Assembly: GCA_963724765.1 (NCBI GenBank)
Contig: CAVRVY010000004.1
Location: 608,001 to 672,000, forward strand
Origin: an uncultured delta proteobacterium
Lineage (GTDB): Bacteria > Desulfobacterota > Binatia > Binatales > Binataceae
DNA: 64,000 nt
Direction of reading: 5' to 3'
How positions within the stretch are numbered: position 1 is the first letter of the stretch; every line of letters begins with the position of its first letter. Shown piece by piece: positions 30,069-59,243 of the stretch. The translations under genes were made by a program, and so were the position numbers. The notes under the pieces are model-generated. The model made no database searches. It was not told the DNA's origin and saw only the letters and a list, made by a program, of their open reading frames with translations.

Positions 30069-30215
30069 TGTCTCCAATGGAACCAAAGACTGGTCCATCG
30101 GACGCACTTTATGAGGCGCAACGAGGCGCTTACCCGATATCAACCGCAATTCGGACACCCAAAACTTCGCGAAAAGCTCATTTCTCGGTCCGCTGACGAC
30201 GGCATGGTCGTTGCT
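30069..30215 (+). promoter_or_regulatory. sigma54 promoter with two upstream palindromic sites (Crp/Fnr gene)
   Basis: CGGCATGGTCGTTGCT at 30200-30215; TGTCTCCAATGGAACCA at 30069 and CTGGTCCATCGGACGCA at 30090. Confidence 0.75.
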
Positions 30216-30266
30216 GTATTCGCGACCAGAGACTTCCTCAAATCTTGGTAGAAAAAGTAAAAGAAA

Positions 30267-31151
30267 ATGGACAGACAGAATAACCTGAGTCGCACCGATT
30301 TCAATTTGTTGAATCGGTTGGAACCCTTGTCGTTTCTTTCAGCCGTCGGATTGCTCGAGCTTGCGAGCGGCCTCAATTCGGCAAACTTTAAAAGGCGCGA
30401 GGTTATCCTTCCTGAAGAGGCGCTGGCTGCGGGTGTCCATATCCTGCTAAGGGGCGTGGCGAAGATCACTTGCGTGAACCGGTTTGGTCGCCGGGTAACC
30501 GCAGCTTTACTTGCACCTGGTCCAATCCCCGAGTTTCTTTCGCTCCCAGTCAGCAGGTGGCATTTTCGCTGCGAGGCTCATAGCGATTGCAGAGTCGGAA
30601 GTCTGAGCTGGGACCAATTCGACGTCATTACCAGGGCGGCGCCCCGATCTGCTTTAAGAAAATTTCACGAAAACAATCTGATGCAATGGTATCGGTTCTT
30701 CGAAGGGGGCCTCAGTTTCCTCCTGGGCCTCGACGTTCGCGAGCGTCTCGTGCTTGCGCTTCTTCAACTATGTTCGAGCTTCGGAGCCATAGAGTCACGT
30801 GGCACCCTTTTGCGAGTCTCGCTCAGCCACCAGGACCTGGCCGATCTGGTGGGTGCCTCGCGACCCCGAGTCACCGAACATTTAGCTGAGTTAGAGCGCG
30901 AGCATCTGCTTATTCGTCAAGGTCGGCAATTGATTGTGCGCGTGGACAGGATCGAAAATTCAACAAGCGTTCCGCCCCCCAACACGAGTGACTCATTCGC
31001 AAAAGCTGGCGCACAACCGCAATTTCCGAAAGAAGGCCAACTCTGTGGTCCACGTTCGTTCGCAGCGATGGCCTCTGTGAAGGCGCTGATACGTGAACCA
31101 TCCGCCAGTCGAGTATCTCGTTATATAAATAACTCTATCGCTATGGCCTGA
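30267..31151 (+). CDS. Crp/Fnr family transcriptional regulator
   Basis: cNMP-like domain, DVRERL, LSHQDLADLVGASRPRVTEHL HTH. Confidence 0.88.
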   Translation: MDRQNNLSRTDFNLLNRLEPLSFLSAVGLLELASGLNSANFKRREVILPEEALAAGVHILLRGVAKITCVNRFGRRVTAALLAPGPIPEFLSLPVSRWHFRCEAHSDCRVGSLSWDQFDVITRAAPRSALRKFHENNLMQWYRFFEGGLSFLLGLDVRERLVLALLQLCSSFGAIESRGTLLRVSLSHQDLADLVGASRPRVTEHLAELEREHLLIRQGRQLIVRVDRIENSTSVPPPNTSDSFAKAGAQPQFPKEGQLCGPRSFAAMASVKALIREPSASRVSRYINNSIAMA

Positions 31152-31221
31152 GCTGATCTTTCATTTCTGGAACAGAATCCTGATTTACTACTGGTGAAAA
31201 TAACTGGTATGGAGGTGTCTT

Positions 31222-31398
31222 ATGTTGCTTTTGATTATTCTGCTGATCCTGCTTTTCGGTGGTGGCGGTGGCTATTACGGATATCGCAGCGGCTACTATG
31301 GCGGAGGTGGGATGAGCCTGCTGACTATCGTGCTGATCGTCTTGCTGATCTGGCTGGTGATGGGTGGCGGGTTCGGACATGGAGTTATTGTCCATTGA
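31222..31398 (+). CDS. DUF3309-like small membrane protein
   Basis: Below cutoff; GGAGG RBS; MLLLIILLILLFGGGGGYYGYRSGYYGGGGMSLLTIVLIVLLIWL. Confidence 0.85.
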   Translation: MLLLIILLILLFGGGGGYYGYRSGYYGGGGMSLLTIVLIVLLIWLVMGGGFGHGVIVH

Positions 31399-31424
31399 CC
31401 GCTTCGCGGTCATGGAGAACAATC

Positions 31425-32480
31425 ATGCACCGACCATCATGGATGTGGATTAGGTACATTGTCCTGGCTGTGGTACTGGGCGCTGCGCTGGCCGGGCCGG
31501 CCGGGGCGGCAGTCCCGGACGCCTGGATCACCACCAAAATTAAGCTGGCGCTGTTGACCACGGAAGGCGTGAGCGGGACGGCGATTAAGGTCGACACCCT
31601 CGTCGGCCGGGTCACTCTGTACGGCAAGGTGCACTCCGCTCAGGAGAAGGCGAAGGCCGAAACCATCGCTCGGAAAGTCGACGGCGTTCAAGGCGTACGC
31701 AACCTGCTGCAGGTGGTCGCCCCACAGCATGAGAAGGCGATGCAGGTGTCTGATGACGACCTCAAGCAGCGAATCGAACAGGCGTTAGAGGCCGATCCTT
31801 CACTCAAGAGCAGCAATATCGCGGTGGAGTCCGTGAATCAGGGCGTGGTGCTTTTAGGCGGCACGGCAAAGACCTTGAGCGCTCACCTGCGCGCCGTCGA
31901 GGTTGCGGCCGCTGTGCCGGGCGTCCGCCGGGTCGCCAGTGAGATCCAGAGTCCCGACACTCTGGCCGATGCGGAGATCTGGCGCGAACCCACGCCGCGC
32001 CAGCCCAGGGCAGGGTACGAAGTGTGGGACACGGCCAGCGACATATGGATCACGTCGGCCGTGAGAATACGCTTGCTGGCCGATACCGAGGTTCCGGGGC
32101 TGGAAATCGACTTGGACTCGTGGGACGGGGTGGTGACGTTATTCGGGATTGTGTCTTCGCAGGAGGCCAAGGCCGCTGCTGAGGCCGACGCCCTCAAGGT
32201 GAGCGGAGTAAAGCGCGTGGTGAACGAACTGCAGGTGGTGGCGAGCGCGAGACAAAAAGCCGTAAACGCGAGCGACGACGAGCTACAGCACGAGGTCAGG
32301 AAGGCTCTCGACGAGCATGAGTTCAGAGACGTCGGCTCGGAGGTGAGAAACGGTGTCGTGCGGCTGACTGGGACCGTCCCAACCGGGGCGCGGAACCTGG
32401 AGGCCGCAGTGGTGGCGCGCTCGATTCCGGGCGTGCGCGCGGTCGAGGACGATCTGCGCCTCCGGGCAGTCGAGGACTAA
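31425..32480 (+). CDS. OsmY-like protein with four BON domains
   Basis: DAWITTKIK, GRVTLYG.V, GV.GVRN.L repeats; signal peptide. Confidence 0.9.
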   Translation: MHRPSWMWIRYIVLAVVLGAALAGPAGAAVPDAWITTKIKLALLTTEGVSGTAIKVDTLVGRVTLYGKVHSAQEKAKAETIARKVDGVQGVRNLLQVVAPQHEKAMQVSDDDLKQRIEQALEADPSLKSSNIAVESVNQGVVLLGGTAKTLSAHLRAVEVAAAVPGVRRVASEIQSPDTLADAEIWREPTPRQPRAGYEVWDTASDIWITSAVRIRLLADTEVPGLEIDLDSWDGVVTLFGIVSSQEAKAAAEADALKVSGVKRVVNELQVVASARQKAVNASDDELQHEVRKALDEHEFRDVGSEVRNGVVRLTGTVPTGARNLEAAVVARSIPGVRAVEDDLRLRAVED

Positions 32481-34472: not shown

Positions 34473-34481
34473 TAGTTCCTT

Positions 34482-36485: not shown

Positions 36486-38039
36486 TCACCGGTTTTGTGG
36501 TTTGGATTGCGCACTCTTAGTATCAGCAGGATCTTGGATTGATGAACCGCGCAGAGCGTCTTCCGGTGTGTTCCACCAGCCTCCGCCGAGAGCAACCAAA
36601 AGCGCGGCGGTATCTTGAAGACGTTGTCCCATCACCTGGATATAGCCAAGTCTCGCCTGCTGGTACTGATAGTCAGCGATTAGCACCTGCAGATAGTTGA
36701 CGGTGCCGGCCTGATAGTTTGCCTGTATCAGGTGCAGCGCCTCAGCCGCCGCGTCGAGCGCCTGCGATTGAGCACTGAGAGTCTGGGCATCATGCTGCAG
36801 CGCGTCCAGCGCATCCGCGACCTGTGCAAGCGCTGCTAGAACGATCTGGCGATAGTTTGCCAAAGCCTGTTGATACGCGTCGATTGCCGCCTTTCGTTGG
36901 TACCAGAGTGTGGGTCCCTGGATCAGCGGGGTTGCAAGAGTAGCGCCCATGGTCCAGAAGGCGGCGCTACTGGCGAACAGAGTGGAAAGCGTGGTGCTGT
37001 TCAAACCGTAGTCGGCAGTCAGGTTGAAGTTCGGGAGCATATTCGCAGTTGCCACCCCTATCTGAGCGCTGGCGCTATGTAGCTGGGCTTCCGCGATTAG
37101 GATATCGGGACGTTGACGCACCAACTCGGACGGCAGGCTGACCGGCAGGTCGTCGGGAAGTTTGAGTTCGGCCAGCGTAACCCGTGGCGGCGCCCAATCG
37201 CTCGGGGCCTGGCCTGCTAAGGTCGCGAGCAAGTGACGGGTGTGGGCCAGTTGCTGCTGAAGAGGCGGCAGCGTGGCCTGCGTTGTGGCCAGTTGAGTTT
37301 GGATGCTGAGTAAGTTCGCATAGGGAACGACACCCGCGCGCGCCTGCGCGCCCGTGATGTTGGTCTGCTCCTCAAGAAACCCAACGATCTGTTGCGTCGC
37401 TTCGATCTCAGCGCTGTACGCCGCCTCCGCCACAACCGCGTTGACAAGGTTGCCCGACAACGCGAGGTAGGAACCCTGGACGTTGTAATATTGCACGTCT
37501 ACCTGCGCGCCCAGCCCCTCTACGGTGCGTCGCTCGCCGCCCCACACGTCGAGGACGTAGCCGACCGTTGCCTGAAGGGTATAAAGATTAAAGATACTAG
37601 GGCCGGAACTCTCGCCGAAGCGGGCCGGGGAGAATTGCTGGCGCGTGGGTTGGAAGCTAGCGCCGAGCTGTGGGTAGAAGATCCCATAGCCGGCACGAAG
37701 GTTATCCTCACTTTGCCGCAGACTTGCCTGCGCGGCCTGCAGCGTCGGATTATTGGCGATGGATTGCATGACCAGCGCGTCCAACTTCGAGCAGTTGAAT
37801 AGCCGCCACCAGTCTGCGGCAATCTTCGCCCCGTGCTCGAAATGCTGCGCGCCACCCACCGTGGCAATCGTTCCGCCGGGCTCTTCCTTGTAGGTGTAGC
37901 GTCGACTGGCAGGTCCTTCGGGGCGCACAAAGTCCGGCCCCACGGCACACGCGGCAATCCAACATGAAAGAAGGACGCAGAGCGCCTTCAATACGTAATC
38001 GCACCCACGGCAGCGGCTATTTCTCGGCAACGTAGACAT
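36486..38039 (-). CDS. NodT/TolC efflux outer-membrane lipoprotein
   Basis: IAACAVGPDF lipobox, PSELVRQRPDI, ALGGGW. Confidence 0.93.
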   Translation of the reverse strand: MSTLPRNSRCRGCDYVLKALCVLLSCWIAACAVGPDFVRPEGPASRRYTYKEEPGGTIATVGGAQHFEHGAKIAADWWRLFNCSKLDALVMQSIANNPTLQAAQASLRQSEDNLRAGYGIFYPQLGASFQPTRQQFSPARFGESSGPSIFNLYTLQATVGYVLDVWGGERRTVEGLGAQVDVQYYNVQGSYLALSGNLVNAVVAEAAYSAEIEATQQIVGFLEEQTNITGAQARAGVVPYANLLSIQTQLATTQATLPPLQQQLAHTRHLLATLAGQAPSDWAPPRVTLAELKLPDDLPVSLPSELVRQRPDILIAEAQLHSASAQIGVATANMLPNFNLTADYGLNSTTLSTLFASSAAFWTMGATLATPLIQGPTLWYQRKAAIDAYQQALANYRQIVLAALAQVADALDALQHDAQTLSAQSQALDAAAEALHLIQANYQAGTVNYLQVLIADYQYQQARLGYIQVMGQRLQDTAALLVALGGGWWNTPEDALRGSSIQDPADTKSAQSKPQNR

Positions 38040-39102
38040 CCACTAATTGGCCCGGGTACACGGCGAGATTTTTGGGCTTCGCGAACCGAAAGATGACCGG
38101 TAACACTCGAACATCGACCCTTTCGAGTCGCTGGTCGGACAATTCGATCTTTGGAGAGACGTACGGCTGTATTCTCACGTATTCAAGTGGAACGCTGACG
38201 TTCGTGCCTCGAATGAACATACGCGCCCGCATCTGAGGTCCTGGGGCCATCCTGTGTATCAGTATCTCGTCGATATAACAGCGAACGCTTATATATTCTT
38301 CTGAAGCTCCCATTACGATGATTGGGTCAGATCCCTGCGTATAGGTATCGTAAGTGCCCTGGGGGGCGACATAGCTGCCAACGGCCGCCTGAATCGCAAG
38401 GATTTTGCCATCGGCCGGCGCCCTGACCGTGTACCAGGCGAGCAGGGATTTGGATGACAGGTAAGCCTTTTCATCGGCTTCATAGGTTTTCTCCTGATTT
38501 CTAATATCGTAGATCCAGGCGCCGGCCTTGGTGAGGTCGTAATTCCTCTGTACTACTTTGAGGTTGGTCGCGGCGACCTTGACGGCGTTTTTCGCGTCGT
38601 CGAGCGTGTACTTGCTCACGGATTTGGGATCCAGCTGATAAGACGCCTCCTGCTTCTGGAGTTCGTCCTGCGCGTTCTTGAGTTGTGCTCGTGCGTACAC
38701 AACCTGGGCCTTGGAGACATCGAAGGTTTCTTTGCGAGGTTCGGCCTGGAGTTCTTCGAGCATGGCGTGCGCGGCTTCGGCTTGCGACCGCAGTTGCTCG
38801 GCGGTCGCCCTCTGGACCGAGTCGTCCATCCGCAGGAGTACCGTTCTTCCCCGGACAGACTGCCCCTCGTGGACCGGGATTTCTACAATCGTGCCGGCTA
38901 CGTTGGGATAGATGTTGATGTCCTCGCCGTTGTTCTGGTAGCTCTCGACGATACCCTCTGCATAGATACCCTTTGCATATGGGTTTGCCGCTGGGTTAAA
39001 TGCCGGCCCAAGTGGCGCGCCATGCAGCCCGTATAGGTATGCGCCAATCAAGCCGGCTGTTAGTCCAAGAAACGCCAGCAGGAGCTCGATCCTGGGCCTC
39101 AT
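38017..39102 (-). CDS. HlyD-type membrane fusion protein
   Basis: Lipoyl-like halves, coiled coil, RVDVRVLPVIF, YPGQLVDV. Confidence 0.9.
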   Translation of the reverse strand: MRPRIELLLAFLGLTAGLIGAYLYGLHGAPLGPAFNPAANPYAKGIYAEGIVESYQNNGEDINIYPNVAGTIVEIPVHEGQSVRGRTVLLRMDDSVQRATAEQLRSQAEAAHAMLEELQAEPRKETFDVSKAQVVYARAQLKNAQDELQKQEASYQLDPKSVSKYTLDDAKNAVKVAATNLKVVQRNYDLTKAGAWIYDIRNQEKTYEADEKAYLSSKSLLAWYTVRAPADGKILAIQAAVGSYVAPQGTYDTYTQGSDPIIVMGASEEYISVRCYIDEILIHRMAPGPQMRARMFIRGTNVSVPLEYVRIQPYVSPKIELSDQRLERVDVRVLPVIFRFAKPKNLAVYPGQLVDVYVAEK

Positions 39103-39797
39103 ACAATGCCCCCCTCCCGGAAGCCGGTTATCCGCCCGTCCTCCATCTCCATAATCCTGTTGCTGTACTCAAAGATTCTGCTGTCATGCGTGACGATGAG
39201 AATGCAGCGCTTTGCCGTCAGGATTTCGGTTTTGACGAAGGACACGATCCTGCGTCCGGTCTCGCCATCAAGCGAGGCGGTGGGCTCGTCGAATACAAGG
39301 ATCTCGGGTTGATGAACGATGGCGCGCGCGATTGCCACGCGCTGCTGCTCCCCACCGCTTAGCTTGGTCGGCGGAAGTTGCGCCTTGTCGGCCAAGCCCA
39401 CGACGTCGAGATACCGGGCTGCCTCTCGAAGCGCCTCGTCCCAGCTTCGCCTCTGCAGAATCAGCGGGATCGCTACATTCTCTGCGGTCGTGAGGCGGGG
39501 GAAGAGATGATAGTCCTGAAACACGAAACCGATCGTGTTCAGCCGGAAATCGGCAATTTCGTTGTCCGAGAGACTCCAGAGATCGCGATTGTCTATTTTC
39601 ACCGAACCGGAGTTCGGTCGTAGAATTCCTGAAATCATGCTCAACAAAGTTGTCTTGCCGCTGCCCGACGGTCCCACTATGTAAAGCATCTGGCCCCAAT
39701 TCGCCTCGAAGCTCACTTCTTTTACCGCGTGGGTTCTGGCTTCACCTTGTCCGAACCATTTCGAGATCTTGTCAGCCACGATTGCGGCCCCGAGCAT
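39099..39797 (-). CDS. ABC efflux ATPase (DevA/LolD-like)
   Basis: GPSGSGKT, LSGGEQQR, DEPTASLD. Confidence 0.93.
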   Translation of the reverse strand: MLGAAIVADKISKWFGQGEARTHAVKEVSFEANWGQMLYIVGPSGSGKTTLLSMISGILRPNSGSVKIDNRDLWSLSDNEIADFRLNTIGFVFQDYHLFPRLTTAENVAIPLILQRRSWDEALREAARYLDVVGLADKAQLPPTKLSGGEQQRVAIARAIVHQPEILVFDEPTASLDGETGRRIVSFVKTEILTAKRCILIVTHDSRIFEYSNRIMEMEDGRITGFREGGIV

Positions 39798-39798: not shown

Positions 39799-40962
39799 TC
39801 AACCTCGGAAGATCTCGAACGGTTCGATCTTCAGCACACGGCGTACTCCCGCGTAACCGGAGACGCCTGCGATTATTAGGACCATCACTAAAGCCAGACC
39901 GAGGTTGGTGTAAGTTACACGGGACGCGTATTCCGGAAGCCTGAGCTGCGCGCCAGCTATGATGAGTGTCGACAGGCCAACTCCGAGCCCGTAGCCGACG
40001 AGCGCGGTAAAGCCGGCCTGGAAGATAATCACATATACCAACTCGCGCCCTTTGGCCCCCATGGCCTTAAGAGCGCCAAAGTGTTCGAGGTTTTCTATAA
40101 TGAAGGTGTAAAAGGTCTGACCGGAGATGGAAAGGCCTACGATGAAAGCGATCACTGTCATCAGCAGCGTATTGGTGCCGATGCCCGTTTTATATTTCAG
40201 GTAACTCGAAATCGCATTCTGGTACTCGGCGTTTGTCAGCGCGAGGTAGCCGAGTTGCGCAACCTGTTGTTTGATGTACGGGACATCGGAGGCGGTCTTT
40301 GGCTCGACCAAAATGTATGAAATAGTAAAGCGCATCGACGGAATGTACTGAATCGCTCTGTAGTAGGTGGTATAGAGCGTCGGGTTGCCAAATAAGGCCC
40401 CGGTCGGGACCCTGGCGATGCCAACGATGACGCCACGATAGTCATTCAGCTCGAATTCTGTTCCGATCTGTGGACTTTCAAGCTTGGGATACTCCTCATC
40501 CTTGACCACGACGAAGCCATTTTCCGCAAAGATATCATTGATATTCCCCGCCAGCAGTTTTGGCCTGCCAACTAAACTGGTGTCGTCAAGCCCGATCACG
40601 GTGACTGGCTGGTAAGTTCCGTCGTGCAGCCTCACCAGCGCCGCACCGGAGTAGAGAGGAACCGCGTATTTGACACCAGTAATGCTGCGCACCGCATCCA
40701 AAACGTAATCCGGCATCGGAACGTTGCTGAGAATGCCATTCGGCGCCGCGGGATCCATGACCCAGATGCTGGCGCCGATGTTAATGACGGTAGCGGACGC
40801 CTTGGTCAGGATACCCGCGAAAGACGAGGTCATCTGTACTATGAGAAAAACCGAGAATGTGGTTCCCACCAAGAGCGCGGTGTATTTGCCTTTGTCGGCG
40901 ACCAGAAGCTTATAGGCCAGGATCAAAATTTCTTTCACTGTTGCTTTCCTCGCGTTTGCCAA
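39799..40962 (-). CDS. ABC efflux permease (DevC/FtsX-like)
   Basis: N-terminal TM, periplasmic domain, FGALKAMGA, three C-terminal TMs. Confidence 0.88.
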   Translation of the reverse strand: MANARKATVKEILILAYKLLVADKGKYTALLVGTTFSVFLIVQMTSSFAGILTKASATVINIGASIWVMDPAAPNGILSNVPMPDYVLDAVRSITGVKYAVPLYSGAALVRLHDGTYQPVTVIGLDDTSLVGRPKLLAGNINDIFAENGFVVVKDEEYPKLESPQIGTEFELNDYRGVIVGIARVPTGALFGNPTLYTTYYRAIQYIPSMRFTISYILVEPKTASDVPYIKQQVAQLGYLALTNAEYQNAISSYLKYKTGIGTNTLLMTVIAFIVGLSISGQTFYTFIIENLEHFGALKAMGAKGRELVYVIIFQAGFTALVGYGLGVGLSTLIIAGAQLRLPEYASRVTYTNLGLALVMVLIIAGVSGYAGVRRVLKIEPFEIFRG

Positions 40963-41211: not shown

Positions 41212-41314
41212 AGCAATATCAATGCCGCAATTTCGGCCCGTTCTAAGACCAGAAATGCCTTTTCGGGATCGGCTGACTCCATTGGAGGCATTCAAAATGG
41301 CTCCAACGGAGTCA
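41212..41314 (-). promoter_or_regulatory. sigma54 promoter with tandem palindromic sites (efflux operon)
   Basis: CGGCATTGATATTGCT (minus strand, 41212-41227); TGACTCCATTGGAGGCA at 41274 and TGGCTCCAACGGAGTCA at 41298. Confidence 0.75.
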
Positions 41315-41476
41315 GCCAAAGAATGATGCCACGGCCGGTCCCATCCACCGTACCCGCCTGAGTATCGGCGCTGAACGGTCGGGGCGGCGCCAACGAAACG
41401 CAGTCCCGACGAGTCTCGCAGAGCCGACCGCGAGACGCGCCCGAAAATGCAAGCCTCCTGCCGTTCGACTTCGCGC

Positions 41477-41492
41477 TGGCATGACAATCGCT
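41477..41492 (+). promoter_or_regulatory. sigma54 promoter
   Basis: TGGCATGACAATCGCT just before AGGAGG and ATG 41516. Confidence 0.6.
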
Positions 41493-41515
41493 AGAAGATT
41501 AGGAGGCCTCAGCGA

Positions 41516-41698
41516 ATGCCGGTAAGCGTGGTCAGAACGCCCGAGGATGAAATCGCATGGGAGCGCGCGAAGGCTCGCGCCCGGGAAGAATATCCCGACG
41601 TTACCGGCGAGCGCTTCTACAGAATTGTGATGGCCATTTATAAGAAGATGATTCACTATCAGCCGCGGACGAGCCGCCCGCGCCGCGATCGAGGATAG
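41516..41698 (+). CDS. Small hypothetical protein
   Basis: Perfect AGGAGG RBS; 60 aa, DEIAWERAK...FYRIVMAIYKKM. Confidence 0.75.
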   Translation: MPVSVVRTPEDEIAWERAKARAREEYPDVTGERFYRIVMAIYKKMIHYQPRTSRPRRDRG

Positions 41699-41950
41699 CT
41701 CGATGCACGACCTTGATAAGCAACGGATGCGGATGGTCGAGAGGCACGTCACGAGCAGCTCGCCAAACTGGCCAGAAGACGCTTCGCCGAACTGGGCTAT
41801 AGCAACATCAACGTTCTCCACTGCGACAGCACTCTGGGATGGCCCGAGCATGCACCTTACGATCTGATAGTGGTGACCGAAACTTTTCCGTTCGGAGTAT
41901 AGGACGCTGTCGGCCGGAATTTATTTCCGTTGCCGCGATGAAGACGGGAC

Positions 41951-42933: not shown

Positions 42934-43037
42934 TGCATCCAACGGACGCACAAATCCAGGGATAACTGTCGCTGTCGGCCGCGCACTTCGCTGATTCCGC
43001 GCTACCGTTGGACTATTGTTCGGGCATAGCCTTTGCG
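42934..43037 (+). promoter_or_regulatory. sigma54 promoter and upstream palindrome of rtcB
   Basis: GGGCATAGCCTTTGCG at 43022-43037; TGCATCCAACGGACGCA at 42934-42950. Confidence 0.72.
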
Positions 43038-43052
43038 CAGTTTCTTGTTTGG

Positions 43053-44738: not shown

Positions 44739-44805
44739 CGCTAAATGCACCTTGATTTCTGCGGACGCTATTACGCGGGAGGAAACGGACGGGCCACAAG
44801 CTGAT

Positions 44806-45693: not shown

Positions 45694-45703
45694 AAAGGCT
45701 CCG

Positions 45704-47352: not shown

Positions 47353-48969
47353 TTACATCGGAGCGACGGACTGCTTCAGCTCTTTTGGTTCGGGTAGCTC
47401 GGTCAGCGTCGCCTCGCTGAGCAAAAGCAGGCTCGCCACCGAAACCGCGTTCTCCAGTGCGACACGCACGACTTTGGTCGGATCGATTATTCCCTTCTCG
47501 ACCAGGTTCACGTATTCCTTGCGCGCCGCATCGAATCCCAGATCGCCCTTGCCGGTCCGCATCTGGTGCACTACCACGCCCCCATCGACCCCGGAGTTTT
47601 CAGCCAACTGACGGGTAGGGATCTCCAGCGCCCGCTTGAGTATCTGGAGCCCGGTACGTTCGTCGCCCTCGCATTTGCTTTCCTCGTTTTCCAGAGCATC
47701 GATCGCGCGCAGCAGAGCGAGCCCGCCGCCCGGGATGATTCCCTCGGCCACGGCGGCTTTGGTCGCGCTGATCGCATCGTCGAAAGCCTCCTTGCGGCTC
47801 TTCATTTCGGCCTCCGACGGCGCACCGACGCGAATAACCGCGACTCCGCCGGAGAGCTTGGCCAGTCGTTCCTGGAGTTTCTCTCTGTCGTAGTCGCTGG
47901 TCGTCTTGTCGATCAGCTGGCGGAGCTGCAGCTTGCGCCCTTCGATGGCGCGCTTGTCGCCAAGACCGCCGATTATCTTGGTCGTATCGTGGTCGACCAC
48001 CACACGCTTTGCCCTCCCAAGTTGCGCGAGGTCCAATGCTTCGAGCCGGGCACCGATCTCTTCCGAAGCGACGCGGCCACCAGTCAGGATGGCGATATCC
48101 TCAAGTATCTCCTTGCGCCGGTCGCCGAAGCCCGGCGCCTTGACGGCTACACAGCGCAACGCGCCGCGAAGCTTGTTCACCAGCAACGTCGCCAGGGCTT
48201 CACCTTCGATATCCTCGGCGATGAGGAGCAGCGCCTGTCCGGCCTGGACAATCTGCTCGAGCACATGGACCAGATCCTTCATCACGGTTATCTTGTGGTC
48301 CGTAAGCAGAATGACTGCATCTTCGAGCACCGCCTCCATTTTGTCGGGGTCGGTCACGAAGTATGGTGACACGTAACCACGGTCGAACTGCAAACCCTCG
48401 ACGACCTCGAGGTTGGTCTCGGTGGTTTTCGATTCCTCCACCGAAATGACACCATCGCCGCCGACCTTCTCCATCGCGTCGGCCACCAGCTCGCCCATCG
48501 CGGGCTCGTTATGCGCCGAAATCGTCGCGATCTGCATCTTCTCCAGCCGGCTCTTGACCGGGCGGGAAAGCGCACGCAGGCTCTCGACAGCAATTCGAAC
48601 ACTACGGTCGAGCCCACGCTTTATGTCGATTGCGCTCGCGCCCGCAGCGACGTTGCGCACTCCATCGGCGAAGATTGCTTCGGCCAGCATGGCGGAGGTG
48701 CTGGTACCGTCGCCCACGCTGTCTCCCGTACGCTCTGCGGCCTGACGAATCATCTGGGCCCCAAGGTTCTCTATCGCATCCTTGAGGTTGATCTCCTTGG
48801 CGATCGTCACGCCGTCGTTGCAAACCAGCGGCGGGCCGAACGAGCGCTGGATAAGCACACACTTCGATTTGGGCCCGAGCGTGATCCGAACCGCGTCGGC
48901 CAGTGCCTTTGCCCCGCGGAGCAGCTTCTCCCGCGCCTCCGAACTGAAAAAGAGCTGGGTGTGTTCCAT
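47353..48969 (-). CDS. groEL: Chaperonin GroEL (divergent paralog, no adjacent groES)
   Basis: TLGPK, NDGVTIAKEI, GDGTST, KAPGFGDRRK, KLQERLAKL; no GGM tail. Confidence 0.95.
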   Translation of the reverse strand: MEHTQLFFSSEAREKLLRGAKALADAVRITLGPKSKCVLIQRSFGPPLVCNDGVTIAKEINLKDAIENLGAQMIRQAAERTGDSVGDGTSTSAMLAEAIFADGVRNVAAGASAIDIKRGLDRSVRIAVESLRALSRPVKSRLEKMQIATISAHNEPAMGELVADAMEKVGGDGVISVEESKTTETNLEVVEGLQFDRGYVSPYFVTDPDKMEAVLEDAVILLTDHKITVMKDLVHVLEQIVQAGQALLLIAEDIEGEALATLLVNKLRGALRCVAVKAPGFGDRRKEILEDIAILTGGRVASEEIGARLEALDLAQLGRAKRVVVDHDTTKIIGGLGDKRAIEGRKLQLRQLIDKTTSDYDREKLQERLAKLSGGVAVIRVGAPSEAEMKSRKEAFDDAISATKAAVAEGIIPGGGLALLRAIDALENEESKCEGDERTGLQILKRALEIPTRQLAENSGVDGGVVVHQMRTGKGDLGFDAARKEYVNLVEKGIIDPTKVVRVALENAVSVASLLLLSEATLTELPEPKELKQSVAPM

Positions 48970-49908: not shown

Positions 49909-50089
49909 AGCAATCATCGGGCCAATGAATCAACCGCATAGCCATCACATCTACTAGTTAAAAGTCGCACACTCCGGGGCGCGTGCTTCCGATCGACGCA
50001 CAGCCGAACAAGCCGGCTGTGTCCGATCGCACCACGGGAAATTCTGATTTCGGCCGATTGCAAGGCAATTGTATGGCGCGTCTCTTGCG
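49909..50089. promoter_or_regulatory. Divergent sigma54 promoters sharing central palindromic sites
   Basis: TGGCCCGATGATTGCT (minus, 49909-49924); TGGCGCGTCTCTTGCG (plus, 50074-50089); TGCTTCCGATCGACGCA at 49984 and TGTGTCCGATCGCACCA at 50018. Confidence 0.75.
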
Positions 50090-50150: not shown

Positions 50151-50375
50151 ATGGCAAACCAGAACCCGATAACGTGTTCGCACTGCGGAAGCAGGAACAT
50201 GCATCTCGGCGAACGCGCAGAGGGCGGCATAAACGCCTACTGCGCCCGTTGCGGTATGCTTGCAAAGGAGTGCGCGCCTACTTTCTGCGGGCGCTGCGGC
50301 AAAAAAGTCGCCGAAGAGTTACTCGATCGTCACTATTTTTGCGCGCAGTGCCACGATCTTCCGTCCGCCGCCTAG
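50151..50375 (+). CDS. Small protein with four CxxC motifs
   Basis: CSHC, CARC, CGRC, CAQC in 74 aa; GAGGG RBS. Confidence 0.7.
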   Translation: MANQNPITCSHCGSRNMHLGERAEGGINAYCARCGMLAKECAPTFCGRCGKKVAEELLDRHYFCAQCHDLPSAA

Positions 50376-50494: not shown

Positions 50495-50965
50495 TCAAGC
50501 AGAGCCGGTCCGACGATGCGGCCGACAAATCCCCGCCAGCGTGCGCCCAACCTCGGCGTCGCAAACCTCGGGCTGCCATCCGCCGCGCGTGCGCTGAGCT
50601 TCGCGCGCGATGTCGTTGATGGAAATGATACCGACGAGGACGCCCTGATCATTTACGACTGGCAGACGCCTGACCTGGTTGTCATGCATCAATGCCTCTG
50701 CCGTCCTCAGGTCATCGCTCGCCCTACACGAGACAACATTGTGTGCCATCACGCTGGCAACGGCGATTTCAAAAAGCGGCCTTCGCTGTGTATATGCCGC
50801 CATACAAATATCGCGATCGGTCAACATCCCGACCGCGTGGCCGTCATCGCCGGCCACCGGCACGCATCCGCAATTGTTCTCCCACATAATCTGTGCGGCG
50901 GCGCTGAGTGCATCGTCATGCCCACAGACCTTGACGTCGGGGGTCATAACTCTTCGGACTTCCAT
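50495..50965 (-). CDS. CBS domain protein (paralog of 29352-29825)
   Basis: AAQIMWENNCGCVPV, LTDRDICMAAYTQ, VRRLPV. Confidence 0.9.
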   Translation of the reverse strand: MEVRRVMTPDVKVCGHDDALSAAAQIMWENNCGCVPVAGDDGHAVGMLTDRDICMAAYTQRRPLFEIAVASVMAHNVVSCRASDDLRTAEALMHDNQVRRLPVVNDQGVLVGIISINDIAREAQRTRGGWQPEVCDAEVGRTLAGICRPHRRTGSA

Positions 50966-51069
50966 GATTTTCCTCTTGCGACCCATGGGCAACATGGTGA
51001 ATCCTGCCGGATCTCACCGAAGAAAAGGTGCGAGCCCGGGGGCTCCCGTCCCGCGTGCGGCTATTTCGC

Positions 51070-51684
51070 CTATGGATGGACCGTGAGCACAGTAAAATTC
51101 TTGTCGGTCAGCATCCGAGCCACTCGATCTGCGTCAGCCGCGCGCAAACGCAGGTAAACCACCCTGCCTCTGCCTTCCGTTTGCTCGCCCCGATAGGTGC
51201 CCATTCCGAGAATCTCCCCATTCTCCTGGGCTACCAGCTGAGCGATTGTCGCAAGCTCAGAGGAGTCTCCCTCGAGCGACAGGTCGATTCTCGCAACGCC
51301 TTCTTCCGTGGTGCCGAGCACTTCGGCGAAGGCCCGCAGCAAGTCTGTCGCAGTGATGATTCCGACCAGCTTGTCGCGGTCGACGACAGGCAGCGCGCCG
51401 ATCTTGTGTTTGACCAGCAGGTTGGCCGCCTCCTCAAGCACGGTTGTGGGAGTCACGCTCACCACCGAGGTAGTCATTGCGCCATTGACCTTGACTCGCG
51501 ACAGAGCGCCCGTGTGTTGGCGCAGGTCGCGGTCACTCACGATGCCGACAAGTTTGCCGCCGTCGACCACGGGCACGCGATGAAAGTTTCGCTTGTCCAT
51601 CATCTGCCGGACCGTCGCGAGCGTGTCTTTTGATTCTACGACGACAGGATCTTTAGTCATCCAACGAGCTACGTTCATTAGCAT
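51070..51684 (-). CDS. AcuB-like CBS pair plus ACT domain protein
   Basis: VARWMTKDP, IVSDRDL, KIGALPV, C-terminal ACT-like domain. Confidence 0.88.
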   Translation of the reverse strand: MLMNVARWMTKDPVVVESKDTLATVRQMMDKRNFHRVPVVDGGKLVGIVSDRDLRQHTGALSRVKVNGAMTTSVVSVTPTTVLEEAANLLVKHKIGALPVVDRDKLVGIITATDLLRAFAEVLGTTEEGVARIDLSLEGDSSELATIAQLVAQENGEILGMGTYRGEQTEGRGRVVYLRLRAADADRVARMLTDKNFTVLTVHP

Positions 51685-51744: not shown

Positions 51745-52914
51745 TCAGCGGTTGCCGCCCATTTCCTGTGACCACACAAGATCCGAATGGTTACTTAGGG
51801 GAATCATTTTTTGCGCGGCATTGTGTATGCTGAGCCCGTAGCGGTCGATCCTCGCATAGAGCTTCTTGCGAGATATTTTCAGAAGGCGCGCCGCTTGCAC
51901 CTTGTTTCCCCCAGTGCGCTCGAGCGCTTTGGTGATAACCTTGCGTTCGAATTCGGCATAGCTGCCGGAGCTCTCGATGGTCGTGGGCTCGTCATTGGGG
52001 TCTTCTTCGCTCGCCACTATTGTCGAGGAGATTGCGTGCGGCGCGGCTCGCCAGGCGTTCACGATCCTGGAGGGCAGATCATCCAGCGTAATGGTGGCGG
52101 AGGTACCGAATGTAAAGGCCGATTCGATCGTGTTGGCAAGCTCGCGGACGTTGCCGGGCCAATCGTACACTTGCAACGCCGCCATCGCTTCGGCGGCGAC
52201 GCCTACCAGAAACTTCCCGCCCTCGTTGCGCTCGTTGAGCAGCTTCAGGAAATGCTGAGCAAGCGTCGCAATATCGTCTGAACGCCCGCGCAGCGGCGCG
52301 ATTTCCAACACGTTCACTTGCAAACGATAATAGAGGTCGGCGCGCAACTGGCCCGTGCGGGCGGCCTCGGCCGGATCGCGATTGGTCGACGCAATGAGTC
52401 TGATGTCGACGGGGGTCTCGTGTGTCGAGCCGACAGGCCTCACGGCTCGTTCCTGGATCGCACGCAGCAGCTTCGCCTGCAGGTCCGGGCTCATCTCAGT
52501 AATCTCGTCCAGGAAGACCGTGCCGCCGTGTGCGGCGCGCAGGAGTCCCGGATGATCGGCGTTTGCGCCGCTGAAAGCTCCGCGCCGATGGCCGAACAGT
52601 TCGCTTTCGATTAGGTCTCTCGGAATCGCGGCGCAGTTAAAGGGAACGAATGATCCTCGCTGCGCGCCGCATTCATGGACGGCGCGCGCCACCAGCTCCT
52701 TACCGGTTCCGCTCTCGCCAACGATAAGGACGGTCGAGCGGGTGGCGGCGACCGCTTCAATCCGGCGAAACAGCCGCCGCATCGCAGCATTCGACCCGAG
52801 CAGACCGTGAAATGGCGTTGCTGCTTCCGCCTCGATGCCCGCGAAGCCCGCGGAAAGGTTCCCGTCAAACTGAGGTTGTCGGTCTTCTTCAGCCGAAGTT
52901 GCATTGATAGGCAT
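51745..52914 (-). CDS. sigma54 enhancer-binding protein (AAA+ and Fis HTH) without a sensor domain; start uncertain
   Basis: GESGTGKE, ESELFGH..GAFSGA, FLDEI, DLYYRL, WPGNVREL, GNKVQAARLLKISRKKLY. Confidence 0.92.
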   Translation of the reverse strand: MPINATSAEEDRQPQFDGNLSAGFAGIEAEAATPFHGLLGSNAAMRRLFRRIEAVAATRSTVLIVGESGTGKELVARAVHECGAQRGSFVPFNCAAIPRDLIESELFGHRRGAFSGANADHPGLLRAAHGGTVFLDEITEMSPDLQAKLLRAIQERAVRPVGSTHETPVDIRLIASTNRDPAEAARTGQLRADLYYRLQVNVLEIAPLRGRSDDIATLAQHFLKLLNERNEGGKFLVGVAAEAMAALQVYDWPGNVRELANTIESAFTFGTSATITLDDLPSRIVNAWRAAPHAISSTIVASEEDPNDEPTTIESSGSYAEFERKVITKALERTGGNKVQAARLLKISRKKLYARIDRYGLSIHNAAQKMIPLSNHSDLVWSQEMGGNR

Positions 52915-52926
52915 GTGCCGCAAGGG

Positions 52927-52961
52927 AGCATACGACGTGCCATGTGTTTCCTTTCGATGCA
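52927..52961 (-). promoter_or_regulatory. sigma54 promoter of the activator gene with an abutting palindrome
   Basis: TGGCACGTCGTATGCT (minus, 52927-52942); TGTTTCCTTTCGATGCA at 52945-52961. Confidence 0.72.
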
Positions 52962-53092
52962 AGCTCAGGATTTCCATCCGAGCATCGGAAACATGCGACA
53001 TCGATGCCTCACCTTGGGGAATGGAGTCCGCACCATCGCCTCGGGCTCGAACCCCTCAAGCGCCGCTTCGCCGCGCCGCAATGCGTCGCGCC

Positions 53093-53425: not shown

Positions 53426-53431
53426 AAGGGA

Positions 53432-55732: not shown

Positions 55733-55757
55733 GGTCTTCCCCTCGTGGTTCCTGATG

Positions 55758-57098
55758 CTACGCGTGAAGGCGCCATTCCGCGGCGCGCCTGGCGGCAAGA
55801 ATCCGCTTGACCTCGTCGTCACCGACCTGGTGGAAATCCCGGTAGAATTGCCCTACGGCAAAGAAGTCCTCCGGGGTCTCAAGGCAAACGATCTCGTCGG
55901 TATCGCCGCGCAGCGCTTCTAGAGTTTCCGCAGGCGCGACCGGAATCGCCAGTATGAGCTTCTTCGGTTTCGCCCGGCGAACTCCCCGAAGCGCGGCTCG
56001 CACCGATGATCCTGTAGCGATTCCGTCGTCGACGACGATCACCGTTTTGCCCGCGAGCGCAACTGACGGCTCCCCGCCGCGATACGCAATCTCACGGCGT
56101 TTTATCTCTTTGAGCTGTCGCTCGATTTCGCGCGTGATATATTCGTCCTCGACGCCCAGCGATTCGATCACTCCCTGGTTGAAAATCGCGCGTGGATGAT
56201 CGCCGTCGACAACTGCGCCAATTCCGAGTTCTGGTTGGCCGGGCGCGCCGAGCTTTCGCACCACCACGATATCGAGGGGCGCTTGCAGAGCATCCGCGAC
56301 CTCGCGCGCCACGGGCAGCCCGCCCCGCGGAATGCCGAGCACGACCACATCCTTGCCCTTATAGGAGGAAAGCGCGGCTGCCAGCATCCGCCCCGCTTCA
56401 ACGCGGCTTGAAAACACAATCGGATCTCCGGCTGAGACGTGGGCTAGTGGCGCGCCTTTCATGTGGAGGACAAACCAATCGCTTGCGAGTTCTGCCACTT
56501 GCTCCAGCGTCCCTGATTCCTCGAACAAGTGGGTGGCGCCGGGCACGATCTTGAACGATTTGTGGCAGCGCAGCAGATTGTACGCCCTCTCGTTGAGCTC
56601 GATCACACCATAGTCCCGGCCACCCACGATAAGCAGGGTCGGCGCTCTGACCTCGGCGAGATGCCGAAGGGCAAGGTCGGGACGGCCTCCGCGCGAAACG
56701 ACAGCGCAGACCATAGGATCCTGGGCTGCCGCCGCCAGCGCAGCTGCGGCACCGGTGCTGGCACCGAAATATCCTACTGCATAGCCTCTCGCGTCCCGCC
56801 TTGCTCTCAGCCACCTCGTCGCGTCGCCAAGCCGATGCGCGAGGAAATCGATGTCGAAAACGTTCTCACGGTCAGCCGCCTCCTCGTCCGTGAGAAGATC
56901 CAGTAGCAGCGTGCCGATTCCGGCATTCTGAAGCGTCTGCGCGACGAGTTGGTTACGAGGGCTCAGGCGGCTGCTGCCACTGCCATGGGCGAACAAGACC
57001 ACCCCCATGGCGCCCTCAGGAATCGCCAGTTCACCCTCCAGGCGCACTGAATCCGAAGGTATGAGCTCCTGACTTCGGGCTATATGTTGCTTGGTCAT
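55758..57098 (-). CDS. Dienelactone-hydrolase-like / phosphoribosyltransferase fusion
   Basis: FAHGSGSSR, GYFGASTG, VSRGGRPDL; GIPRGG, VVDDGIATG, AVGQFY. Confidence 0.92.
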   Translation of the reverse strand: MTKQHIARSQELIPSDSVRLEGELAIPEGAMGVVLFAHGSGSSRLSPRNQLVAQTLQNAGIGTLLLDLLTDEEAADRENVFDIDFLAHRLGDATRWLRARRDARGYAVGYFGASTGAAAALAAAAQDPMVCAVVSRGGRPDLALRHLAEVRAPTLLIVGGRDYGVIELNERAYNLLRCHKSFKIVPGATHLFEESGTLEQVAELASDWFVLHMKGAPLAHVSAGDPIVFSSRVEAGRMLAAALSSYKGKDVVVLGIPRGGLPVAREVADALQAPLDIVVVRKLGAPGQPELGIGAVVDGDHPRAIFNQGVIESLGVEDEYITREIERQLKEIKRREIAYRGGEPSVALAGKTVIVVDDGIATGSSVRAALRGVRRAKPKKLILAIPVAPAETLEALRGDTDEIVCLETPEDFFAVGQFYRDFHQVGDDEVKRILAARRAAEWRLHA

Positions 57099-57121
57099 GG
57101 CAAATACTCAATAGGCCTCTG

Positions 57122-57223
57122 AGCATCAGACGTGCCACCGGAGGCGACGTTCGATTCGGCCGTTCCGAACCATTCGCAGATCCGCCCTGCCGAAAGGAGA
57201 CACCGCTGGTGCCATAGGAGTCA
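57122..57223 (-). promoter_or_regulatory. sigma54 promoter with upstream palindromic sites
   Basis: TGGCACGTCTGATGCT (minus, 57122-57137); TGGTGCCATAGGAGTCA at 57207 and a half-site at 57186. Confidence 0.75.
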
Positions 57224-57261
57224 TCATTCTGAACCGAAAGTGCCGGGTCATTGCCTCGATC

Positions 57262-57567: not shown

Positions 57568-57797
57568 GGTTTTCTCTCCCGCACTTCTCCAACAAGCAAG
57601 AACCGCATCCACGAAGTCGCGGCTCACGCGGACGGCGAGCCGATCCGATGTCCTACGTCAAAGGCCGATAAATTTGCGAGCACATGCGAGCAGCCTCGGT
57701 CACGGAGTGGCCGGCGCATTTGCCGACGCGGGATCCAGTTCGGCTCCTGCGACGTGTCCGGTGCGGAAGACGGTCTGCTACTTCTGCGGTGGCTCTG

Positions 57798-58253
57798 TTA
57801 CTTTTCCTGGATAGACTTGATGTAGTACACAAGAAGCTTGATTCTTGTGTCGACTTCATACTGGCTGCGCTTCGTGCTATTACCGAGACCGCCCTTGGCA
57901 AACGCCAGGCCCCAAATGGGCATCTCGCTGGTCCCATGCGCGGCAACCATCTCGCTGCCGTCGATATATTTCCGGACCCACTCCTCCGGAAATGTTCCGG
58001 CGTGGCCTTTTGTAATCTGCGTCAAGTCGGCTGGTTTCTTCGTCAGTACGGCGGCCACGGGGCCGTCGCCCTTCCCGTTCGGTCCGTGGCATTGAGCGCA
58101 ATAGCGGCGGTATTCGAGCTTGCCAGTAGTCACTTTTCCCGGAGGCACCATCTCAGGTTGTTCACCTTCCTGGGCCCATCCCGCGGCGGTAATCCCAAGT
58201 GCCATGCAGAGGACGAGAGAAGCAACCGGGAATAGCCATTTGATTCGGCACAT
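57798..58253 (-). CDS. Monohaem cytochrome c
   Basis: CAQCH, PADLT, HGTSEMPIWG; signal peptide. Confidence 0.9.
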   Translation of the reverse strand: MCRIKWLFPVASLVLCMALGITAAGWAQEGEQPEMVPPGKVTTGKLEYRRYCAQCHGPNGKGDGPVAAVLTKKPADLTQITKGHAGTFPEEWVRKYIDGSEMVAAHGTSEMPIWGLAFAKGGLGNSTKRSQYEVDTRIKLLVYYIKSIQEK

Positions 58254-58379
58254 GTCTCGTAACTCCGTTAGTCTTTGTACCAGGCGCTCGGCGCACACCC
58301 GATGACGCCAATCGCAGAGGCGCGGAAAGACCTTCCCGCGCAGAGCAGCCTGTTCAAGGCGACAGGTCACCACCGAAAA

Positions 58380-58802
58380 TTACTTTGCCTGGATAGACTG
58401 AATGTATTGAACAATCTCTTGGGCGCTCCCTCGCACCGCCGTTTCGCGAGTATGGACGGCCGGGCTCTCGGCCTTAAAGCGCTCTCCCCAAACCGGCATG
58501 TCGCTGGTACCGTGAGCTCTCACCTCATCGCGCCCATCAATTGCACGCATGACCTTCACGCCAGGGAAGGTTCCTCCGTTTTGCTTGGCGATCTGCGTGA
58601 GGTCGGCAGGCTTCTTGGTGAGCAAATTGGCAAGCGGCCCATCACCCTTTGCATCAGTGCCGTGGCAGCTTGAGCAATACTGCTCGAACCTCGCCTTTCC
58701 AGTTGCGGCTTGTTGCGCCGACGAGGCACCCGGTAACACGCAGACGAACGTCACTACTGCCCAGGTGAGTGAAAAGCGGGACATAGGATTCCTGTCAGCC
58801 AT
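58380..58802 (-). CDS. Monohaem cytochrome c (tandem paralog)
   Basis: CSSCH, PADLT, HGTSDMPVWG; AGGAGG RBS. Confidence 0.9.
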   Translation of the reverse strand: MADRNPMSRFSLTWAVVTFVCVLPGASSAQQAATGKARFEQYCSSCHGTDAKGDGPLANLLTKKPADLTQIAKQNGGTFPGVKVMRAIDGRDEVRAHGTSDMPVWGERFKAESPAVHTRETAVRGSAQEIVQYIQSIQAK

Positions 58803-58878
58803 TTCCAAAACCCTCCTGTTAAAGATCGCTGCGAAACGACAACTCTAACGAAAACGAACAGAATCATCGCGCATGGAA

Positions 58879-59243
58879 AGCAATCTTTAGGCCAGTTCCC
58901 TGTGGAGCGAGCATTACAATAGATTTGTCGTGCGCAGAGCGGGGCCTGACGCATGAATGCTCGGGTGCGGCGCGGGCGAATTGCACCATCCAAACCTTCC
59001 TCTGTATCCAAAGGGAACAACCCGCACAGCGTGCGGTGGTGTTTTATTGTTTTCGTGCGCGCTCACGCATCGAAGCGGCAAGGGTGCTGAAGCCGAGAGC
59101 TCAAAGTCTTCAACCGAGTTATCGTTCATGGACTAGCGGATTGTGGCTCTCCAGGTAGCACGCCGGCATTTCAGCGGCGCCGGCCTTTGGCCTTCCGTGG
59201 GTCTCTTCTATCGAAAGATCCTGCCCATGGCACAGGGAATGCT
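58879..59243. promoter_or_regulatory. Divergent sigma54 promoters with a central palindrome
   Basis: TGGCCTAAAGATTGCT (minus, 58879-58894); TGGCACAGGGAATGCT (plus, 59228-59243); TGTATCCAAAGGGAACA at 59003-59019. Confidence 0.75.

Follow-up and report, generated by a model that had tools for sequence, protein, structure and literature searches.

Bacterial enhancer-binding proteins (bEBPs) bind enhancers about 100–150 bp upstream of the promoter and reach the closed complex by looping (PMC7057263). NtrC-like proteins bind dyad-symmetric sites, often paired and mostly within ~100 bp of the promoter (PMC11841059; PMC4641369), and for most sigma-54 promoters of Desulfovibrio a predicted enhancer-binding-protein site is found no more than ~100 nt away (PMC4641369). 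Here we describe a 17-bp dyad, TGnnTCC-N3-GGAnnCA, that recurs ahead of sigma-54-type promoters in a 64,000-nucleotide stretch of an uncultured Binataceae genome (hereafter, the window). Judged from sequence, the dyad is probably the upstream activating sequence (UAS), or enhancer, of a lineage-specific bEBP subfamily, a reading to which we assign a probability of about 75%.

NtrC-type enhancers (for example, that of glnAp2) are similar in being 17-bp dyads with an outer TG...CA, placed singly or in pairs upstream of the -24/-12 element. The activators of these systems likewise combine an AAA+ domain with a C-terminal Fis-type helix-turn-helix (HTH) and act at a distance (PMC7057263). In contrast to NtrC, the inner half-site here is TCC/GGA, the recognition helix reads ISRKKLY and the activator encoded in the window has no receiver domain. 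The modal spacing of ~80 bp from the GG of the -24 element (~-105 from the start) comes close to the lower limit of the 100–150 bp quoted above. What would be new is the enhancer sequence of a lineage-restricted bEBP subfamily; the NtrC-type UAS mechanism is known and conventional.

The closest functional analogue that we found appears to be the NmpR regulon of Myxococcus xanthus (PMC11841059). This sigma-54-dependent regulon has intergenic tandem GCGCA-N5-TGCGC sites (15 bp, with 14–15 bp between them), and its genes encode a CBS protein (first in the nmpR operon), a universal stress protein (USP), a P-type ATPase with a cbb3 oxidase, and hemN-hemerythrin (PMC11841059). NmpR is a receiver-domain protein that takes its input from a phosphorelay headed by a globin-bearing kinase, and its operon is autoregulated (PMC11841059). 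Tandem dyads, CBS, USP, P-type ATPase-oxidase and hemerythrin targets, probable autoregulation and a globin-type sensor are features that our system would share with it. The site sequence is another one (TGnnTCC-N3-GGAnnCA), two of the activators carry a predicted globin-fold domain in direct fusion, and the window activator is sensor-less. As the sites differ, a receiver domain is absent and the globin is joined to the activator itself, we do not class the system as an NmpR regulon.

The motif, TGNNTCCNNNGGANNCA, has 10 fixed bases. The window holds four exact copies, compared with a mean of 0.04 in 100 dinucleotide-preserving shuffles of the window, none of which reached four, and nine sites with at most one mismatch (shuffle mean 2.06, maximum 6). 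From base composition, the expected frequency is 1.16e-6 per position, which amounts to 0.07 exact copies for the window and 6.3 for the whole 5.4-Mb genome, so the rate of roughly one per 10^6 bp given in the initial annotation of this DNA was correct. That annotation had placed exact copies at 30069, 41274, 41298 and 42934 and one-mismatch copies at 49984, 52945, 57207 and 59003. All were found, along with a fifth one-mismatch copy, at 60847, that it did not list. The partner sites it named at 30090, 50018 and 57186 are present but weaker than described, with two, two and four mismatches.

De novo motif recovery at the promoter regions, proposed at the time as a check, gave the same element. 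We enumerated perfect palindromes with 5 of 7 half-site positions fixed and spacers of 0–7 in the -25 to -175 regions of 10 window sigma-54-type promoters that had been picked on promoter score alone. This unbiased enumeration ranked the motif joint first, with 3/10 regions compared with 1/305 regions of other sigma-54-type promoters in the genome; the only ties were overlapping variants in the same register. A count of short dyads with 3–5-nt half-sites, taken over all intergenic DNA of the surrounding gene island relative to the genome and of low power, placed TCC-N3-GGA fourth (p = 6e-3). Two other origins of the repeats were ruled out. No relationship was seen among the 30-bp flanks of the nine sites (mean identity 0.29, equal to the 0.29 of random pairs), which excludes a repeat or mobile element, and an RNA hairpin or terminator does not fit dyads that lie upstream of promoters and whose pairing is limited to 3+2 bases.

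The excess of the motif is local to the window, intergenic and promoter-linked, and is not a large genome-wide excess. Using a crude GC3-based gene call, which left ~20% of the genome non-coding and missed several island genes with clear Pfam domains (30267-31151, 44545-45693 and others), we found 9/11 exact and 34/111 one-mismatch copies to be intergenic. An outward-facing GG-N10-GC element matching at least 9/11 consensus positions was present 30–260 bp from 19/43 intergenic dyads (at most one mismatch), 9/79 coding dyads and 6.0% of 5,000 random intergenic points (binomial p = 1e-12, a value overstated to the extent that related genomes and duplicated islands are not independent). Among 37 nearest distances (28 sites in this genome and 9 in related loci from metagenome-assembled genomes, MAGs), 23 fell at 54–90 bp, in groups at 54–61, 69–71 and 77–84 bp. 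With the GG at -24/-25, the dyad centres fall near -80 to -115. Helical phasing of these distances is only suggestive (apparent periodicity of 10.5–11.6 bp; Rayleigh p 0.004–0.04 at 10.5 bp, uncorrected for period scanning).

In the window, promoters were taken as GG-N10-GC elements matching at least 8/11 consensus positions, which are consensus matches rather than mapped starts, and distances are measured between the centre of a site and the GG of the closest element that faces outward. The sites and promoters, with the palindromic dyads given without strand (.), are as follows.

30069..30085 (.): exact dyad, 124 bp to the GG of the crp/fnr-BON promoter
30090..30106 (.): weak partner dyad with 2 mismatches, both in the outer TG; 103 bp to the GG and 21 bp from 30069
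30200..30215 (+): sigma-54-type -24/-12 element, 9/11, preceding the genes for the Crp/Fnr-type protein (30267-31151) and the BON-domain protein (31194-32480)
41274..41290 (.): exact copy; centre-to-GG distance 56 bp (efflux-operon promoter)
41298..41314 (.): exact copy; centre-to-GG distance 80 bp (efflux-operon promoter); in tandem with 41274 (24 bp)
41212..41227 (-): sigma-54-type element, 9/11, ahead of the MacB-type efflux operon
39799-40962, 39099-39797, 38017-39102 and 36486-38039: MacB-type efflux operon, encoding FtsX permease, ABC ATPase, HlyD-like protein and OEP, respectively (Pfam)
42934..42950 (.): exact copy; centre-to-GG distance 81 bp (rtcB promoter)
43022..43037 (+): weaker sigma-54-type element, 8/11, ahead of rtcB (open reading frame (ORF) 43008-44489) and ABC-2 transporter genes 44545-46483
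49984..50000 (.): dyad with one mismatch, flanked by divergent promoters at 69 bp (hsp20 side) and 83 bp (Zn-ribbon side)
50018..50034 (.): two-mismatch partner dyad, position weight matrix (PWM) score 12.3; 103 bp on the hsp20 side, 49 bp on the small-ORF side, 34 bp from 49984
49909..49924 (-): sigma-54-type element, 10/11, ahead of hsp20 (ORF to 49418), with groEL 47353-48969 and usp 46859-47287 downstream on the same strand
50074..50089 (+): sigma-54-type element, 9/11, ahead of the 74-aa Cys-rich ORF 50151-50375
57207..57223 (.): dyad with one mismatch; centre-to-GG distance 79 bp (phosphoribosyltransferase promoter)
57186..57202 (.): just the right half of the dyad, with 4 mismatches overall; 58 bp to the GG and 21 bp from 57207
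57122..57137 (-): sigma-54-type element, 10/11, ahead of the phosphoribosyltransferase-domain gene 55758-57098
59003..59019 (.): one-mismatch dyad, 118 bp to the cytochrome c promoter and 218 bp to the hemerythrin promoter
58879..58894 (-): sigma-54-type element, 9/11, ahead of cytochrome c genes 58380-58808 and 57798-58373
59228..59243 (+): sigma-54-type element, 10/11, ahead of the hemerythrin-domain ORF (maximal ORF 59187-59768)
60847..60863 (.): dyad with one mismatch, lacking any sigma-54-type element up to 300 bp away; either a chance match or a site for a different kind of promoter

The geometry first proposed for these sites, 45–130 bp to a -24 element, agrees with what we measured: 10/12 window sites lie at 49–124 bp, the exceptions being 52945 (12 bp; see below) and 60847 (no element). 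The tandem spacing of 21–34 bp likewise held, with pairs 21, 24, 34 and 21 bp apart. Only one pair consists of two exact sites (41274/41298), the others having a weak or half partner, and three promoters have a single site (that of rtcB, and those of cytochrome c and hemerythrin, which share 59003). Central placement between divergent promoters applies to 49984/50018 and 59003, but is doubtful for 41274/41298, where the second 'promoter' is inside an ORF. That all sites are intergenic is essentially right, except that 41298-41314 overlaps the stop of ORF 41312-41851 (without a Pfam match). Site 52945 lies inside the maximal ORF 51745-53001, yet is 31 bp upstream of an ATG at 52914 that is conserved in 5/5 orthologs. 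Site 60847 is 114 bp upstream of an AMP-binding enzyme ORF (60977-62749). The 74-aa product of ORF 50151-50375 (+), divergent from hsp20 and sharing sites 49984/50018 with it, has several CxxC pairs and weak zinc-ribbon matches only.

The genome encodes one rpoN and 27 bEBP-like ORFs, four of which stand apart in score (855, 608, 368 and 360 bits; next, 268). One of the four is in the window, with two CBS-pair genes behind it.

51745-52914 (-): bEBP gene (P0001), 389 aa, with a sigma-54 interaction AAA+ domain (Sigma54_activat), a GAFSGA loop and a Fis-type HTH (HTH_8)
51070-51684 and 50495-50995 (-): two CBS-pair genes, immediately following the bEBP gene in the same orientation

The window bEBP lacks an N-terminal sensory domain, its AAA+ domain beginning ~38 residues after the ATG at 52914 (residue 68 of the maximal ORF). 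In this it is like PspF, HrpR and HrpS, which are bEBPs without a sensory domain that are controlled in trans (PMC7057263), and consists of AAA+ and HTH only. It differs from them in its regulon and in its neighbours, which are two CBS-pair proteins; no PspA- or HrpV-like partner was identified. The other three members of the subfamily are at C1:339.5-340.9 kb (78% identical to the window protein), C4:1718.4-1719.9 kb and C1:243.1-244.7 kb. The 78%-identical paralog (locus L042:10847-12680, C1) is divergent from a PAS histidine kinase and a stand-alone receiver, neighbours that the window copy does not have.

In an alignment of 24 of the bEBP-like ORFs, only the four subfamily members carry ISRK(K/M)LY in the second HTH helix. 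A helix of the form [IV]SRK[KRA]LY was found in 12/13 close homolog loci (Binataceae or unclassified MAGs) and in 0/11 more distant homologs. Within 30 kb of a subfamily gene, zones that make up 4.4% of the genome, lie 13/28 promoter-linked dyads (7/22 outside the window), clustered sites not being independent. The motif clusters near all four subfamily genes, and no other regulator type recurs at all clusters. Because of this co-location and the shared recognition helix, we take the sensor-less bEBP of the window (51745-52914) and its three paralogs as the best candidates for binding the dyad, and up to four paralogous activators, not one, could read it.

Since the assignment of the binder rests on co-location and a shared recognition helix, we considered that another regulator accompanying these sigma-54 promoters (for example, a repressor or nucleoid-type protein) binds the dyad while the bEBPs bind elsewhere. 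Exact sites with no canonical sigma-54 element nearby, which are common in related genomes (below), would suit such a protein. Other regulators vary by island, however, with a TetR protein near C1:243 kb and an EIIA-HTH protein near C4:1.71 Mb, and the bEBP subfamily is the sole regulator type near all four clusters. No alternative dyad was found enriched upstream of the island promoters, and a 17-bp dyad ~80 bp upstream of the -24 element has the geometry of an NtrC-type enhancer. We regard this alternative as improbable.

The Crp/Fnr-type regulator encoded at 30267-31151, or a paralog, could in principle use the dyad as an operator, co-activating or repressing these promoters. Its gene lies in the island and encodes cNMP-binding and HTH_Crp_2 domains, Crp/Fnr proteins are established to bind palindromes as dimers, and a paralog at C2:36964 (38% identity) is 16 kb from the isolated site C2:53304. 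Yet the gene itself follows a dyad and a sigma-54-type promoter and so looks like a target, and the clusters at C1:245-254 kb, C1:346 kb and C4:1.689-1.711 Mb have none of its 14 paralogous places closer than 30 kb. Class I and II Crp/Fnr activation sites are centred near -41.5 or -61.5 of a sigma-70 promoter, unlike the sites here, ~80–125 bp upstream of starts at sigma-54-type promoters. Crp/Fnr boxes have even spacers (for example, TTGAT-N4-ATCAA and TGTGA-N6-TCACA), whereas the N3 spacer here is odd and puts the dyad axis through a base pair. In the window, the FNR-type box shows no enrichment (21 compared with 15.06 expected; 8/100 shuffles reached 21). The Crp/Fnr protein is thus a probable target and not a likely binder, and we consider an operator function of the dyad for it very unlikely.

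Across 25 genomes of the family, the motif had 126 hits, compared with 27 for reversed-pattern controls (summed over genomes), and in 16 genomes of other families of the class it had 32 hits compared with 31. The motif is enriched only in the family carrying the bEBP subfamily (relatives titled Candidatus Binataceae). In 13 loci around close bEBP homologs (220,842 bp; Binataceae or unclassified MAGs), we found five exact sites and no controls, and 5/5 of these sites have a sigma-54-type element at 60–139 bp; 67 loci around more distant homologs (1,125,797 bp) had no exact site. Among 67 exact sites from 14 family genomes, none of which had served to define the motif, 26 were promoter-linked (18/34 in the same genus, 8/33 in other genera), and 17/26 of the linked sites were at 50–95 bp, with a mode at 79–84. 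One site–promoter unit, C2:297480 ahead of usp-CBS, recurs with a fixed spacing of 80–84 bp in this and at least six other genomes. The phosphoribosyltransferase gene and its orthologs and paralogs, a set of 11 that includes two genes from this genome (both in the PWM training set), keep an upstream sigma-54-type promoter in 9/11 cases, and 7/11 have dyad-like sites 53–151 bp upstream of the promoter, three as tandem pairs 21–24 bp apart.

Several observations weigh against the dyad being the enhancer of this subfamily. Genome-wide there are just 11 exact copies, ~2–3 times expectation (6.3 from composition; ~3.4 scaled from the window shuffles). In the related genomes, 41/67 exact sites have no canonical promoter under the criterion used. 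In genome G017, only 1/12 well-formed exact dyads has a canonical -24/-12 element within 260 bp, and loosening the threshold did not bring out canonical elements there; either the promoters of this genus diverge from the consensus or it puts the site to another use. Genome G014 encodes a bEBP of the subfamily and has no exact motif. The neighbourhoods of the closest short-form orthologs are sparse in sites (0–1 exact and 0–2 one-mismatch per 24–40 kb in five genomes), so the site density of the window is not conserved around them. Promoter scoring was a simple consensus count, not a calibrated model, and the PWM, trained on pattern-restricted matches, adds little independent information.

Some of these points, namely the modest genome-wide count and the frequent one-mismatch copies in coding sequence (77/111), would also be expected if the recurrences of this motif, which was defined post hoc, were due to chance or base composition. 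Such an origin is strongly disfavoured: the window count was reached by 0/100 shuffles, 9/11 exact copies are intergenic although intergenic DNA makes up only ~20% of the genome, other genomes show the association with promoters again, the excess over the reversed control (126 vs 27) is confined to the family, and the motif was recovered de novo.

The site at 52945 stands apart from the other copies in its relation to the promoter of the window bEBP gene.

52945..52961 (.): one-mismatch dyad 3 bp upstream of the bEBP -24 element, its centre 12 bp from the GG; probable autoregulatory operator
52927..52942 (-): sigma-54-type element of the bEBP gene, 10/11, with the -12 GC 13 nt before the ATG

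We aligned five short-form genes (the window gene, the C1 paralog and orthologs in G001, G010 and G011). The -24/-12 element has an identical offset in 5/5, its GC lying 13 nt before the conserved ATG, which implies a 5' leader of merely 2–3 nt and thus a nearly leaderless mRNA. All five carry an imperfect dyad (PWM 11.9–18.1) ending 2–3 bp upstream of the -24 element, and 3/5 have a second dyad-like sequence overlapping the -12 element. A site centred near -37 cannot loop and should compete with holoenzyme, so we read 52945 as a probable autoregulatory operator, probably a negative one. It is not at enhancer distance, being promoter-adjacent and conserved as such. In 4/5 short-form loci (not the window), a divergent gene starts ~140 bp upstream; at the C1 paralog this is the PAS histidine kinase gene, with the stand-alone receiver gene after it. 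A conserved block ~60–110 bp upstream of the activator promoter (~52990-53060 in the window) occurs at all five loci and holds one half-site-like stretch. The original view of the dyad as the UAS of the regulon activator is supported by promoter linkage, a preferred spacing of ~80 bp, restriction to the family and co-location with the bEBP genes; it does not extend to 52945 and 60847.

The two long paralogs, L044:14392-15921 (+), which is C4:1718391-1719920, and L041:5092-6594 (-), which is C1:243091-244593, are ~500–509 aa long and have a 182-aa N-terminal domain without a Pfam match; neither they nor the window bEBP match Response_reg. An AlphaFold model (AF2) of this domain, built from 11 homologs (pLDDT 86.8), matched only globin-fold proteins. 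Foldseek gave a probability of 1.00 with E no better than 8e-3, and VIA-align gave Z 13.5–15.3 and rmsd 2.1–3.0 Å over 126–141 residues, where helical models can reach Z ~13 from arrangement alone. The VIA-align matches included the sensor globins BpeGReg, DosC, AfGcHK and HemAT, as well as cytoglobin and the heme-free RsbR N-domain. That every top structural match is a globin argues for a true globin fold, here predicted to be fused to a sigma-54 activator output, despite the caveat on Z. Tyr54 and His145 are invariant in the domain and His57 and His118 nearly so, but these residues could not be placed in a heme pocket; globins of the RsbR type are heme-free.

In a search of proteins of 279–891 residues, 43/43 database clusters with this domain carry a sigma-54-activator AAA+ domain and 41 also HTH_8; their named sources are Binataceae and, once, a MAG labelled Deltaproteobacteria. 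An ESM Atlas search with the domain gave no usable match. A weak S100/EF-hand match in a PDB-sequence profile search (E 0.006) was rejected as non-specific helical similarity given the globin-fold result. The window activator has no globin-fold domain. Among the papers listed in a literature search on globin-coupled sensors and sigma-54, only one, on the NmpR system, combines the two, and there the globin is on a kinase. If heme binding were confirmed, globin domains on sigma-54 activators would be a new output class for globin-coupled sensors.

Pfam scans identify 28–60 kb of the window as an island of stress-type genes. It encodes CBS-pair proteins, the Crp/Fnr-type regulator, a four-BON-domain protein, the MacB/HlyD/OEP efflux operon, and rtcB with the ABC-2 transporter; usp, groEL, hsp20, the Cys-rich ORF, the sigma-54 activator with its two CBS-pair genes and a PolX/PHP polymerase; and the phosphoribosyltransferase-domain protein, two cytochromes c and the hemerythrin-domain protein. 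The window has 60.5% G+C compared with 62.3% for the contig, which, with the genes missed by the GC3 caller, hints at an atypical composition of the island.

Outside the window, promoter-linked sites precede an hsp20-hsp20-dnaJ-hsp20 cluster, usp-CBS, hemerythrin-usp, two cox operons, an S30AE-CSD hibernation-factor-like gene, a DUF2267 gene and a P-type cation ATPase gene facing a CBS protein. A second phosphoribosyltransferase gene (83% identical), facing an M50-CBS protease, also has a promoter-linked site. These targets point to a dispersed regulon of stress, low-oxygen and dormancy-type genes, as inferred from their predicted products. Similar gene types occur in sister islands at C1:238-258 kb, C1:330-350 kb, C4:1684-1724 kb and C4:672-692 kb (hsp20, usp, CBS, S30AE-CSD, cox, pyruvate:ferredoxin oxidoreductase, PEP carboxykinase, nitroreductase and P-type ATPase). 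Another bEBP paralog is present in each of three of these stretches, C4:672-692 kb continues the window island, and transposase and integrase genes adjoin two of them.

Mycobacterial DosR governs a hypoxia/dormancy regulon under another regulator type, and that regulon shares usp, hsp20, CBS, phosphoribosyltransferase, P-type ATPase and respiratory components with the set found here. The same likeness holds for the lxa locus of Burkholderia cenocepacia (PMC3721108). In contrast to both, the genes here would be under sigma-54 and a bEBP, another regulator class and promoter type, and the regulon is known from sequence alone. Our search of the literature for sigma-54 or an enhancer-binding protein with universal stress protein and Hsp20 found no such regulon (supplementary motif tables were outside its scope), and none of the papers listed for Binatota and sigma-54 treats both.

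In the mechanism that we propose, a Fis-type HTH dimer would dock on each dyad, whose half-sites are one helical turn apart. Single or tandem dyads ~55–125 bp upstream of the -24 GG, most often ~80, would nucleate an AAA+ ring that contacts the closed Esigma54 complex through DNA looping and then opens it. Opening would activate a dispersed stress, low-oxygen and dormancy-type regulon comprising hsp20/groEL/usp, CBS, phosphoribosyltransferase, rtcB, the MacB-type pump, cytochrome c, hemerythrin and the Crp/Fnr-type regulator and, elsewhere in the genome, cytochrome oxidase, the S30AE-CSD protein and the P-type ATPase. The 52945 copy, which touches the activator's -24 element, would serve autoregulation instead. 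More tentatively, and with less confidence than even odds, Binataceae might run this hypoxia/dormancy-type sigma-54 regulon through a new one-component class in which a sensor globin is fused to AAA+ and HTH domains, with the sensor-less paralogs reading the same dyad as amplifiers. The amplifier role is suggested by their own sigma-54 promoter, promoter-adjacent operator and nearly leaderless mRNA.

The mechanism would not surprise a specialist, the element being a conventional enhancer. The pairing of dyad and bEBP subfamily provides a testable cis-element and regulator for a lineage known solely from metagenome-assembled genomes, and delineates from sequence a candidate regulon of chaperones, universal stress and CBS proteins, RNA/DNA repair enzymes, respiratory proteins and an efflux pump. 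If the more tentative reading, with globin-fused one-component activators, is true, it would be a third independent regulatory solution for a gene set that is under DosR in mycobacteria and under Fnr-type proteins in Burkholderia. The motif could be used for regulon mapping across the family, and the regulon may be a route by which such organisms enter a low-energy state.

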